A DNA stretch of 64,000 nucleotides, from the NCBI GenBank assembly GCA_951406725.2, contig OX597832.1, positions 34,472,001 through 34,536,000 on the forward strand, in the 5' to 3' direction. Source of the stretch: Octopus vulgaris (lineage: Eukaryota). The position numbers were made by a program, and so were the translations under genes. Of the stretch, positions 21,154 to 62,674 are shown piece after piece. Position 1 is the first letter of the stretch. Each line of letters begins with the position of its first letter. The notes beneath the pieces were generated by a model. It made no database searches. It saw only the letters and a program-made list of their open reading frames with translations, and was not told the DNA's origin.

Positions 21154-24100
21154 ACTTCCGGCTTCGTAGAGTAAACACTTGTTGTCTTGCTCTGCGATAA
21201 AAAACAAGAAGGGTTGCATATAAGTCGACGAAATAATTTGGCGAACACTCACAAAAAACGTAGAAATTATTACCTTATAGACGTATACTTGGACATTTTG
21301 TTTAAAAACCGTAATATATTTTGCCACAAGTCAAGTATTGTTCACTTGTGCTCGCAACACACACAAGATTTCTCCCTGTCGAAAAAGCACATGGAATCTT
21401 CTAAATTTATTTCCAGTCGACTCAAATAGCAAAAGGAAAAAAGAAAACCTCTTTGTATACCTTTAATAAGATAAGTAATCGAATTCTTGTTTATATCTCC
21501 GTAAACTCTTGTTTTACCGTTAATTCCGGTATATCTATCCTACATATATTATTTGTCACATGCGTGTATATATCTGTATGTATATGTATATCGAATTCTT
21601 GTTTATATCTCCGTAAATTCTTGTTTTACCGTTAATTCCGGTATATCTATGTGTATGTATATGTGTGTGTTAGAAGTATAGTCGCAATTAGTTTTATTTT
21701 AGAAGACATTGTCTGTAGCGACGGACAAATATATATTTTCTTTTCTCTTTTTCTCTGCTTAAATTCTGTAAAATCTCTTGGCTTGTTTTCTTCCAGCTAT
21801 TTTATTATTGTTATTATTGTTTCTTTATATACTCACTTGTTACTCTTGTTTATATATGTGCATGTGCACACATGTGTATATGTGTGTATGTATATGTATG
21901 TATACATGTGTATGTGTGTGTACAAATAGCTTCGTTTAGAATTCTTCCCTCTCTGTCTGTCTCTTCAGTTCTCTCCCTCACGCTTCTCCTTGTCTCTTCA
22001 TTACTCTCTTCTATCTTACTCCCCTCTTTCAGATATATAAATTCTTTCTCTCTCTATTTCTTCCTTCTCTCCCTGTCTCTTCAGTTCTCTCCCTCACGCT
22101 TCTCCTTGTCTCCTCATTACTCCCTTCTATCTTACTCTCCTCTTTCAGATATATATATCTTACTCTCCTCTTTCAGATATATATATTCTTTCTCTATTTC
22201 TTCCCTCTCTCTCTGTCTCTTCAGTTCGCTCCCTCACGCTTCTCCTTGTCTCTTCATTACTCTCTTCTACCTTACTCTCCTCTCTCAGCTCTCAATCTCT
22301 CTCTAAGGACATAAACGCTTTCTCTCTCTTCCTTCAGCTCTCAGTCTCTCCTCTTCTTCTTCTCTCTTACTCTCTTCTTTTGGCTCCCAATCTCTCCTTA
22401 AGTACATAGACGCTCTCTTTCTCTATTCCCTCCCTACCCCCTATTGCACTATTAGATTAATATAAATTAATATAATTAGATAGATAGATATTTAGATAAA
22501 ATATCAAGAATGTCCAGAACCTGGAAACGTGACGAATTGGCGTGGTTCCTGCGAGGATGGCAATGCGCTGACGGAGAAAATCCAAATAATATAATTACGG
22601 CTGCGCTGAAGAACAACGGATACAAAAGGACGTCAGCTCAAATAGAGCGGAAGAAGCAAGAATTTATACGCTCCTACGCACTTGTCAGATCGCACATTAA
22701 CACGCTGGATGCCATTTTTGACAGCGAAAAACGCGAACAAAGTAAAGATGGCAAGGATAGAGACGCGGGCGCTGATGAGGAGGGTCACCCCCACCTGGTA
22801 GACGCCCAGGAAGAAAACTCCAGTGAGAGGCCTGCCCGGGAGATGAACCCAGGTGCGGATGCTCCTCCCGGCACCAAAAGCCATGGACATGGAGATGAAA
22901 AAACCAAAAAAGGAGGAAAAACTGAAGCTAAAACTCAGACAAAGCCAAGGGACAAGGCAGCCAGAGATAGAGGCAAACCTAACTGTCCATATGCCAAAAA
23001 GGATGGAAACAAGCAGTGCACACGGGTATGTAGGTTCTACCTGAAAGGTGCCTGCCGGCATGGAGAGGAAGGTGCAGGCTGCCGCTTTGCACATCCGGGA
23101 CCCTGCCACAGAAACCAACCACCGAAAGGAAATGGGATGGACCACGCATCACCTGCCCCAAAACGGAGGTACGCAGATGTGGTGCGTGCCACAAACCACC
23201 AACGTGTTGTTGAAAGGGCAGCTGCTGAGCGGGAATCTTTTTTGTGCATGGCACAAAAGATTGTACAGCAGCTAACCTGGCTCCATCAGGCTCAGGCTCG
23301 CAGATGGAACTGCCCACAGTTCACAAGACCGCCACAGCAGATGGACCCAGGGTGGACACCACCGGCAACAGCATACACCTCACCTCGATGCTCCTACTGA
23401 ACATCAGAGGACTACTAACACACAGTAACAGGACAAAAGTCCCGTTCCTGAGAGACTTTGTTGCATGCAATCAAGCCTTATGCATAGCACTCACGGAAAC
23501 GCACCTGAAACCGGACATAGCAGATGCGAGTTACACATACCACAGTATGCTGTACTACGGACCGACAGGAAAGAAAGGAGTCATGGAGGTGTTGCTATGT
23601 ACATCCGTGAGGACCTCACACCCCAGGTCCTCTTGTCATACTCAAACTCGGTGTGTGACACACTAATTGTACATATTAGGCAACTTGATATAGTTGTGTG
23701 TGCTACATATCGCCCTCCAGATGCCCCAAGCCATGTGGGCAAGTTTGAAGACTGCCTTATAACCACATTAGAACAACACATATGTGTACTTCTTATAGGA
23801 GACTTCAATCTGCCTAATGTCAGATGGCCCGAGGGCCTTTCTCTCCCAGGAATGACAAGATGTGAACGAGGACAGGCGAGGTCCCTCCTGAACCTCCTCA
23901 ACACCCTGTACATGGAGCAGGTAATACTCCAACCAACCAGGGCAGGTAACATACTGGATCTCTGCTTCACAAATGACATGGATCTCATCCATAATGTGAA
24001 AGTGACACCGACACTACTCTCGGATCACAACATGATAGAGCTGAGCATGTACGGTCCACAAGAGAGCACGGACATACAGCCTACAAGAAACCCTCAGAAT

Positions 24101-59805: not shown

Positions 59806-62674
59806 AAAGATAGAAAAGGGAGGAGCCATGGTGGAGTTGCAATGTACATCCGAGATGACCTCACGCCCCAGGTCCTGCTGTCGTATTCAAACTCAGTGTG
59901 TGAAACTCAAATTGTACACATAAGACAACTGAATATCGTCATATGCACTACATATCGCCCACCAGACGCCCCAAAACACTCAGGCATGTTTGAAGACTGC
60001 CTAACAAAAATAGGAGAAGTCCTCACCAACCTTGAACAGCACAACAGTGTATTCTTCATGGGTGACTTTAACCTCCCCAATGTGGAATGGCCTGAGGGGC
60101 AGATGCTCCCAGGGATGACACACCATCAGCAGGCACAGGTGGAGTCCCTGCTCCATCTCACAAATACCTCTTTCATGGAGCAAATAGTTCTGCAACCAAC
60201 AAGGGCAGATAATATACTGGATCTCTGCTTTACAAACAATATGGATATTATCCATAATGTTAATGTGATGCCGACAATGATCTCGGATCACAACATAATA
60301 GAGCTGTCTATGTATGGAACAAAAGCCCCCGCAGACACACAGCCTATACGAAGCACCCACCATCTCTCCAACTTAAACTTTCATAAAGCCAACTGGAAGT
60401 CGATTGAGAAAGAGATCCTCAAACAGGATTGGCCTGAATGTCTCTCCACACCGGACATAAACATGAAACACAAACACTTCATGTCCATAATACAAGCCAT
60501 ATGTGACAAATATGTCCCAATGTGCAGGGCCAGCACACACAAGAATAAAAACAGGATCCCTAGAGAAAGGAGGATTCTTATGAGACGACGGACAAGGATT
60601 GCAAACCGCCTGAGCAAGCACACCAAAAGTGGTGAGAAGTCTCGGCTCGAAAGAATGCTAATGGAAACTGAGAAAAGTCTACATCAGTCCCATGAAAAGG
60701 AGAGAGCAGATAAAGAAGCTTGGGTAATAGAAAATATAAAATCAAACCCTAAAGCTTTCTTTAAGTTTGCCAAAGAGACAGCCACAGTGCACCAGAGAAT
60801 AGGACCTCTCTTCCAAAAAGATGGCTCTCTCACAGGAAATCCCACGAGGATAAGTGAAATACTGAACGAACAGTTCCAAAGTGTATTCACTACACCTCTA
60901 GGACACAGGCAAGTAAACAACCCAGAAGAATTCTTTGCCACTTTACCAGCGGCCAAAGAGACAAAAATTGAGTACATCAACATCGAAGAAGATGATATCA
61001 CACTAGCCATTGATGAGATTGACACAAACTCAGCTGCTGGACCTGATGGATTCCCAGCGATCCTTCTCAAATCGTGCAAACGAGCCCTTGCAAAACCGCT
61101 ACAGCTTCTTTTTCAGAGCTTTCTTGCAAGTGGTAAGCTCCCAGTCAAACTGAAAGAGGGGGTAATATGCCCTATCCATAAGGGAGGTAGCAGAGCAGAT
61201 GCTAAAAATTATAGGCCTATCTCTCTGACCTCACACATCAGCAAAGTCATGGAACGAATAGTCCGTAAGAAACTAATCATGTTCCTTGAAGAAAATGACT
61301 TACTGTCTGACACCCAGCATGGATTTCGACCAGGTAGAGGCTGCCTAACACAGCTCCTGCAACACTATGACTGGGTGTTGAAACAGCTACTAAATGGCTC
61401 AAATGTGGATGTAATATATCTTGACTTTGCAAAAGCCTTTGATAAAGTCGACCATGGTATGATCTGTCACAAACTGCGTGGTCTCGGCATAGGCGGGAAA
61501 CTTGGAGAGTGGCTGCACAACTTCCTAAAAGACAGAAAACAGGCAGTTGTGAGCAATGGAGCCACCTCCAGGGAAACGCAAATAACAAGCGGTGTCCCAC
61601 AGGGCACTGTCTTGGGGCCACTGATGTTCATAGTGGCCCTTTCAGACATGCCTTCAGTTGCTACGATGACCACCCTTGCTAGCTATGCAGATGACACAAA
61701 GGTCTCCCACGCAATACAGAACCCTGAAAATATTGCGCATCTGCAACATGAGCTGGACACAATATACAGGTGGGCTGAGGACAACAACATGCAGTTTAAT
61801 GCAGGTAAGTTCCAGGCCCTGCGCTACTGGCACACAAAGGTAAATGACGTGAAGACTGGATACACTGGCCCAGGAAGAATTGCAATCCCTGAGTCAAAAT
61901 CAGTGCGTGACCTGGGCATTGACATGAGCAATGATGCATCTTTCCAAATGCATATTGCTAATCTGGTGATAAAATGCAGACGGCTAGCTGGATGGATTCT
62001 CCGAACTTTCAGAACAAGAGAGAAGGAGACACTGATGGTCCTATGGAAAACATTTGTCCTCAGCCGCTTGGACTACTGCTCCCAACTTTGGTCACCACAC
62101 AATATAAAACAAACAGCAGAACTCGAAGCAACTCAGAGAAGCTACACAAAGAAAATCGTCTCAATGCAAAATGTCAGCTACTGGGAAAGACTGAAGGTAT
62201 TAAACCTCTTCTCCCTGGAGCGGAGGCGGGAGAGATATGCAGTAATATACATCTGGAAAATCCTGGAGGGTCTTGTCCCAAACTTTGGCATTCAAAGTTA
62301 CTCCAACCGCAGAACGGGGCGCCGCTGCGTGGTGCCAAGGATTCCAACATCACCATCAAAATACAGGTCCAGATACTGCAACAGCTTGGGTTTCAGAGGA
62401 CCACAGCTTTTCAACATCCTCCCTAAATGCCTGAGAGACTTACATGGTGTGGATGTGGGTTTCTTTAAAACTAAACTGGATCTCTTCTTGTTGGGAGTCC
62501 CAGATGAACCTACCTCACGACAGGAGACACGGATGCGGGCAGCAGCATCGAACTCCCTTCTTGATCAAGTGCCACGTATCAGAGGTGGATTCACAAACTA
62601 GTGTGGCTCATTCAGCGGTGGTGCCCCAGCATGGCCGCGGCCTTCGGGCTAAAACATTTTTAAGGATTTAAGGA
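59806..62674 (+). mobile_element. LINE family B, 5'-truncated within APE; the remainder of ORF2 is open to the stop at 62601
   Basis: [13 protein letters not shown]...YADD...RGGFTN*; 3'UTR GGTGGTGCCCCAGCATGGCCGCGGCCTTCGGGCTAAAAC; (TTTAAGGA)2 tail; TA on both sides. Confidence 0.93.

Follow-up and report, generated by a model that had tools for sequence, protein, structure and literature searches.

A family-specific association of CR1-clade LINEs with TA arrays in Octopus vulgaris

Three families of long interspersed nuclear elements (LINEs), designated A, B, and C, have a real and family-specific preference for arrays of the dinucleotide TA in the genome of Octopus vulgaris. The association was analyzed from a 64,000-nucleotide stretch of the 2.8-Gb genome (GenBank assembly GCA_951406725.2, contig OX597832.1; G000:C19:34472001-34536000), hereafter the window, that contains eight LINE copies, six from family A and two from family B, and a single short interspersed nuclear element (SINE). 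Self-BLAST and junction print-outs confirmed an original prediction, made from the letters of the window, that TA lies no more than a few bases from both ends of the SINE and of seven of the eight LINE copies, in both orientations, with the caveats that the 3' TA is only 16 bp at copy A1 and about 8 bp at copy B1, followed in the latter by a 100-N gap at 47223-47322. The prediction was likewise correct in naming the doubly truncated copy at 3059 (A0) as the oldest and as the exception, since A0 is the most diverged (92-94% identity to the other A copies), lacks both termini, and has TA at neither end. Judged from the junction sequences, families A, B, and C most probably exercise an active preference for pre-existing TA arrays via target-primed reverse transcription, with long arrays the likely favored landing sites.

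Counts of 3' junctions across the genome extended the association beyond the window. Family A and B tails were counted as exact patterns and scored for TA on the + strand only, the reverse-strand counts of gapped patterns being left unused because they were inflated by several gap lengths. Family A had 4385 intact tails, and on the + strand ATATATAT lay within 24 bases of 1311 out of 2147 (61%) compared to a background of 6.5%, while TA was within 30 bases of 565 out of 1029 + strand tails of family B (55%; 2072 tails in total) compared to 7.2%. Family C was found in the same arrays as A and B, with 795 tails (short pattern) and TA in 22 of the first 30. Two control families from the same genome, which we take from their protein motifs to be RTE-like and canonical CR1 (family D), had TA at the 3' end in 2/30 (RTE-like, 3735 ends) and 4/30 copies (D, 3041 ends) and at the 5' end in 0/30 and 1/26, respectively, the last count omitting 4/30 copies that had no usable 5' end. 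By chance, as estimated from 47 arbitrary 10-kb stretches (469,900 bases), a TA run of at least 8 bp started within 4 bases at 3.6% of positions and on both sides at 2.0%, and these stretches held no TA array of 500 bp or more. TA-tract endings of A, B, and C were approximately tenfold commoner than chance or than in the two control families. Among distant metagenomic relatives, TA occurred within 700 bases in 2/29 (32 of 80 loci examined, 29 of which had at least 150 bases downstream).

The youngest copies were the most TA-bound, with 25/29 of family A (one of 30 loci was dropped as its tail pattern was absent from the scored range) and 29/30 of family B lying within TA, and the young A tails were followed by ATA in 29/29 cases. 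Microhomology of the tail alone is insufficient to account for the TA preference, since the tail of the RTE-like control also ends in AT-containing repeats. Tabulation of the junctions against the TA background, the check proposed with the original prediction, gave young-copy flanks far richer in TA than random sites. What had been predicted as a young, TA-specific lineage is thus upheld in part: the preference is genome-wide and absent from both controls but not strict, covering 55-73% of 3' ends, and the elements are young (median identity of 99.9% to copy A3 among the best-matching copies) but do not form one young lineage, as the preference spans at least three families, one of them (C) only 37% identical to family A in the protein encoded by its second open reading frame (ORF2).

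The 5' side of the insertions indicated which came first, the array or the element. Of the 57 long A copies, which begin at 52 different truncation points, 42 had TA upstream; of the 15 misses, three stop at gaps and no fewer than four represent alignment breaks within the divergent 5' untranslated region. In addition, interruptions of the 5' and 3' arrays of the same copy resembled each other (mean cosine of 0.68 compared to 0.37 +/- 0.06; 0/5000 shuffles; 25 copies, 3 of 28 having been dropped for too few interruptions), and at locus L048 one minisatellite unit type flanks both sides. TA at many 5' truncation points together with interruptions common to both flanks therefore indicates that the arrays preceded the insertions. 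AT-containing duplications of 2-6 bp were recognized by eye at copies outside arrays (L049, L057, L206, L211, and L213), and 14/41 of the 5' junctions started with AT or TA compared to 11% expected, a figure somewhat inflated by alignment extension. Separately, two pairs of unlinked copies (L037 with L046 and L034 with L062) were each cut at a shared element position, every copy beginning with AT, and the junctions of L038, L045, L074, L107, and L124 carried short reiterations of the first bases of the element itself, a pattern resembling recurrent slippage on the template.

A pathway compatible with these junctions would begin with nicking of alternating TA DNA by the apurinic/apyrimidinic endonuclease-like domain (APE) of ORF2, followed by pairing of 1-3 bases of the nicked strand with an RNA tail ending in AT or T, while the 5' end would be joined via short AT microhomology to result in the 2-6 bp duplication. 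The site is most likely set by a liking of the endonuclease for flexible TA DNA, to which a Myb/SANT-like domain in the first open reading frame (ORF1) may add a tether, and this ORF2 probably also copies the SINE and stubs of 40-70 bp by way of shared 3' hairpins. ORF2 matched only Exo_endo_phos(_2) and RVT_1 in Pfam, giving an APE and a reverse transcriptase (RT) with no RNase H, C-terminal zinc finger, or restriction-like nuclease. The APE motifs N, E, Y, D-N, D, and H, presumably with the same roles as in L1, are intact in A, B, and C, as are the RT motifs, and the two A subfamilies differ by 63 synonymous compared to 42 non-synonymous codon differences, mostly at third positions.

Several points weigh against an active, endonuclease-led preference shared by the three families. 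No TA run lies near approximately 40% of the A tails and 45% of the B tails, and both the stubs (15/34) and the SINE (17/30) are looser in their TA preference. In all three families the loop of the endonuclease is of an ordinary, short kind that displays nothing suggestive of specificity, and contigs of four public runs covering A and B ends, in which repeats were skipped, yielded no empty site. The comparison of A, B, and C with family D covers their junctions. Finally, A and B group together in the RT tree and C, with a long branch, falls among more distant relatives, so A/B and C are not sisters and the TA preference need not have a single origin.

The effect of copy length was evaluated on samples in genome order, with long copies exceeding 200 bp, stubs of no more than 100 bp, and five mid-length copies excluded. 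Long copies had 3' TA in 41/53 cases compared to the stubs noted above (p=0.003; background 5.6%). The split was clear in B (11/13 long copies compared to 1/7 stubs), borderline in A (14/19 compared to 9/21, p=0.06), and absent in C (16/21 compared to 5/6), for which lengths are less reliable. The SINE count refers to 3' TA of at least 8 bp among the 30 best-matching copies (median 9.5 bp). The stubs start at the 5' edge of the shared 3' hairpins, and those of 40-70 bp constituted 21/42 A tails and 7/20 B tails (L186-L225 and L348-L367); they could be a tail-only mini-element or the products of aborted reverse transcription.

The looser preference of the stubs and SINE compared to full-size copies would be explained by a tether in ORF1. 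The N-terminal domain of the ORF1 protein (ORF1p) is retained in A, B, and C although the remainder hardly aligns, and it resembles Pfam Myb_DNA-bind_4 at 27.9 bits in a C fragment (cut-off of 27) and below the cut-off in A (E=0.008) and B (E=0.0003). It is accompanied in all three families by a CCCH finger (zf-CCCH at 20.3 bits compared to a cut-off of 20.5). Residues 1-77 of the A protein are predicted to form three helices (pLDDT of 87), for which Foldseek gave RAD MYB (probability 0.97, E 0.36) and GT-1 (0.92, E 0.48) as best matches and VIA-align gave TEAD4, the DNAJC2 SANT domain, and RAD at Z scores of 7.3-8.0. These scores are middling for a small helical fold and agree with the Pfam Myb call, but they speak to the fold and not to its function. 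A profile search yielded 49 proteins, and the Myb-CCCH layout was present in 4 of 11 inspected, the two named ones being from Octopus. The ORF1 types described for CR1 (RRM/CCHC, transposase-22, PHD, and esterase) were not found in the ORF1 of A, B, or C. CR1 elements vary in their ORF1, which is therefore no defining feature of the clade (PMC4120745); the available text of that survey lists RRM, CCHC, PHD, esterase, transposase-22, and unclassified types with no occurrence of "myb", which differs from the Myb/SANT-like and CCCH layout predicted here.

It is possible, albeit tentatively, that this predicted domain rather than the endonuclease binds TA and tethers the ribonucleoprotein (RNP) to arrays, as suggested by its retention in three families, its modeled similarity to MYB, GT-1, and SANT folds, and the stronger TA association of long copies compared to stubs and the SINE. 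SANT-type domains often bind proteins rather than DNA, though, and the stubs remain approximately eightfold TA-enriched over the background while the length effect is missing in C and borderline in A. The wider proposal that an octopod CR1 branch evolved array targeting via ORF1p rather than ORF2p, with the modeled Myb/SANT-like domain reading (TA)n, is somewhat doubtful. Under it, multiple RNP contacts would favor long arrays and reverse transcription would proceed far only when anchored, leaving 40-70 bp stubs elsewhere. If true, it would mean target choice by ORF1p in a clade regarded as having no insertion preference. A non-specific CR1 in the same genome gives a built-in comparison.

Array length provided a further line of evidence. 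The 3' TA flank was at least 500 bp in 11/29 of the youngest A copies and 8/30 of the youngest B copies, with the copy from the window counted in each set. Perfect TA words of 200 bases occurred 307,855 times in the genome, and arrays of at least 500 bp amounted to approximately 5 Mb or 4% of TA-run bases, a rough calibration from LINE-rich loci; since the youngest copies are often in such arrays, long arrays are over-used several-fold. Long (TA)n forms cruciforms, and the arrays might break or open spontaneously by this route or by nucleosome exclusion to capture elements with little sequence reading by the elements' own proteins. This is unlikely, as young RTE-like and canonical CR1 copies of the same genome are not captured there, the 3' ends are intact with normal tails, and palindromic or inverted flanks, rejected as an insertion trigger, were unenriched (3/105 sites compared to 6/312 background arrays). 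Near-perfect inverted duplications centered on TA runs were observed in the window at 8542-9037 and 53655-53750 and at loci L035, L189, and L202.

The original prediction had also proposed that the elements promote array expansion, and this was not supported. Within 164 kb around the window, 10/11 arrays of at least 200 bp are in contact with an A or B copy or with the SINE, the eleventh continuing such an array, and among 107 loci retrieved for unrelated purposes the sole array exceeding 500 bp adjoins a B copy, although both are small samples. These contacts, together with a tail slip at copies A3 and A4, would be expected if an element lengthened or created arrays by priming slippage or by read-through RNA carrying (UA)n. 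Lengthening or creation of the arrays in this manner is nonetheless unlikely, as locus-specific interruptions are common to both flanks, TA lies 5' of truncated copies and out of the reach of read-through, several young copies have zero or 7 bp of 3' TA (L010, L014, and L025), and two of three listed long perfect TA runs touch no A, B, C, or SINE copy. Moreover, older copies have shorter flanks (median of 48 bp, n=18) than young copies (338 bp, n=26; p=0.0016), which does not fit steady array growth after insertion and fits either insertion into long arrays followed by shrinkage or a change of preference between subfamilies.

Random insertion with subsequent purging by selection of copies outside TA arrays could likewise leave long copies more TA-bound than short ones, but is very unlikely as the youngest copies, on which selection had little time to act, are the most TA-bound and other LINEs persist outside TA by the thousands. 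Scarcely credible is a sequencing or assembly artefact, for even though junctions tend to collect N gaps and minor errors, A4 may have been falsely duplicated from A3, and the kilobase lengths are assembly-based, the enrichment is family-specific, seen with 20-60 bp flanks, and accompanied by locus-specific interruptions on both sides. The nested clusters in long TA arrays do mark spots where assemblies break or duplicate.

The RT sequences placed A, B, and C in the CR1 clade. In Table S7 of Martelossi et al. 2023 (PMC10294476), the clusters O.sinensis_104, _14, _211_LINE, and O.bimaculoides_1_LINE are assigned to the Jockey superfamily and CR1 clade, and a comparison by eye with the RT rows of its supplement 30 matched A to 104 (nearly letter for letter), B to 14, and C to 211. 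The assignment consequently comes via near-identical RT rows in a published tree, our own tree being built without named references. The octopus CR1 clusters in the consulted parts of PMC10294476 are RT clusters only, with no mention of a target site, an ORF1, or a partner SINE. A 3' stem-loop (hairpin z-scores a modest -1.2 to -2.6), short tandem-repeat tail, and frequent 5' truncation were present as in CR1, and PDB sequence matches were limited to L1, R2, and group II intron RTs. Protein relatives carrying a species name came from Argonauta hians, Octopus vulgaris, and O. sinensis, in keeping with an octopus host. Other candidate clades were rejected, including Tx1 (Kibi and Koshi), as the RT is only 25% identical to and distant in the tree from Tx1-like ORFs of the same genome, and zf-RVT was detected in such an ORF with none in the ORF2 of A or B; R4/Dong by the N-terminal APE; and R1 (Waldo, Mino, and SART/TRAS) by the CR1 class and the lack of a CCHC knuckle match in ORF1. 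The behavior of sequence-specific LINEs was found as a preference (3' TA in 41/53 long copies and 5' TA in 42/57 long A copies). Among other elements, a LINE at L148:6950-9000, which from its motifs we take to be Dong/R4-like, has (TAA)n on both flanks, presumably as known for Dong. A Tx1-like ORF2 (open for 1146 aa, L160:159-3596, - strand) has identical sequence upstream and after its poly(A), which suggests tandem copies or a repeat target.

Insertion into simple repeats has precedents in Waldo and Mino (R1), Kibi and Koshi (Tx1), and Dong (R4), of which the first four use an APE as do A, B, and C (PMC3812793; PMC4640811). The microsatellite targets given for LINEs in the relevant part of PMC3812793 are ACAY, AC, TC, TTC, and TAA, with TA named only for the rice miniature inverted-repeat transposable element Micron, and the octopus families differ in their clade and target, 55-80% specificity, self-complementary target, and favoring of long arrays. 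Target-specific families fall mostly in the early-branched (restriction-like-nuclease), Tx1, and R1 groups, according to the corresponding section of PMC4640811. The combination of an APE and RT, tandem-repeat tails, heavy 5' truncation, and 3' stem-loops shared with SINEs is that of CR1/L2 LINEs with SINE partners (PMC4824008, in part), from which A, B, and C differ by the TA preference that family D of the same genome lacks. The "Tn-TA" signature of RTE/Bov-B, as outlined in PMC13295347, resembles the pathway proposed here in TA-step cleavage and an effect of the tail repeat on priming; its target is a single dinucleotide rather than an array, and the RTE-like family of this genome has no array preference. 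Neither a TA-targeting CR1 nor a CR1 with a Myb or CCCH ORF1 emerged from literature searches, with Repbase, Dfam, and subscription journals outside their scope. A, B, and C are already cataloged as CR1s, while neither their target preference nor the layout of their ORF1 seems to have been described, and a (TA)n-preferring CR1 sub-lineage would represent a further origin of LINE target specificity.

The SINE shares its 3' ~50 bp with the family A 3' end (94% identity) and has the same hairpins. Neither ARAGORN nor Rfam identified a tRNA within it, and A/B-box-like motifs in its head were recognized by eye only. The core motif and two hairpins are also present in B and in an older abundant SINE (59 hits in 470 kb), which may correspond to an octopus SINE of Ohshima and Okada (1994). 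As the 3' hairpin motif of the A/B lineage sits on this very abundant SINE, the lineage was probably a driver of a large part of the repeats in the octopus genome. The older SINE carries an internal TA/TG microsatellite, is found in the window at 53150-53600 (- strand) and 16182-16354, and ends elsewhere in the A/B hairpin motif when intact. Seeding of TA targets by its microsatellite was rejected as minor, for TA was present in 18/49 anchors yet these held only 6/323 background arrays of at least 20 bp and 2/168 examined insertions.

Within the window, A0 (3059..5651, + strand) is an old family A fragment with Pfam matches to the APE and the start of the RT, and the remaining copies are nested among the arrays. 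An interrupted TA array (20702..21154) precedes A1 (21155..26423, + strand), a full-length copy of an older subfamily with a frameshifted ORF2 and an (AATC)n tail ahead of its short TA. A 3.8-kb array (27662..31430) adjoins the 3' end of A2 (31431..34848, - strand; truncated 5'), and the array at 34850..35563 separates the 5' ends of A2 and A3. A3 (35566..41258, + strand) is the other full-length family A copy and has both frames open, namely ORF1 (37322..38212, + strand; 296 aa, predicted Myb/SANT-like three-helix domain at aa 1-77 and CCCH zinc finger at aa 170-196) and ORF2 (38200..41160, + strand; 986 aa, APE and RT of the CR1 clade), followed by the two-hairpin motif common to A, B, and the SINEs and an (AATC)n tail (41187..41258, + strand). 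The array at 41258..42956 separates A3 from A4 (42959..46416, + strand), which is truncated 5' and has 146 bp of TA downstream. A4 is 99.8% identical to A3, with six differences over 3.4 kb (37798-41258 compared to 42959-46416), and shares with it a tail slip absent from the other young copies inspected, so these two are perhaps not independent insertions and may stem from a local duplication, a local re-insertion, or a false duplication.

Family B, with 76% nucleotide identity to family A, is represented by B1 (~47336..50126, - strand), truncated 5' with its 3' end beside the 100-N gap, and by B2 (59809..62674, + strand), truncated 5' with an open RT frame and a (TTTAAGGA)n tail. A TA array with a TACGTA-type interruption (50136..50617) runs from the B1 5' end to the 3' end of A5 (50622..51074, - strand), a 453-bp family A 3' fragment with this one interruption type on both flanks, and the array on the 5' side of A5 (51080..52167) is interrupted by an (AG)n run. 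The SINE (57938..~58169, + strand), with an (A4-6C)n tail, is preceded by the array at 57315..57936 and followed by that at 58170..59805, which extends to B2. The array after B2 (62674..64000) totals 2.4 kb and continues for 1.08 kb past the window until it reaches the 5' end of a further B copy (locus L336), which begins at G000:C19:34537080 with a full-length 5' end. Penelope-like fragments at 17741-20027 and 54900-57314 include a GIY-YIG match at 18651-20027 that is inverted relative to 17741-18829, and the fragment ending at 57314 adjoins a TA array. Other repeat remnants at 11730-12491 and 13367-13798 (both - strand) gave, respectively, a weak helix-turn-helix match (DUF4817), taken here to be Tc1/mariner-like, and a CCHC zinc knuckle match.

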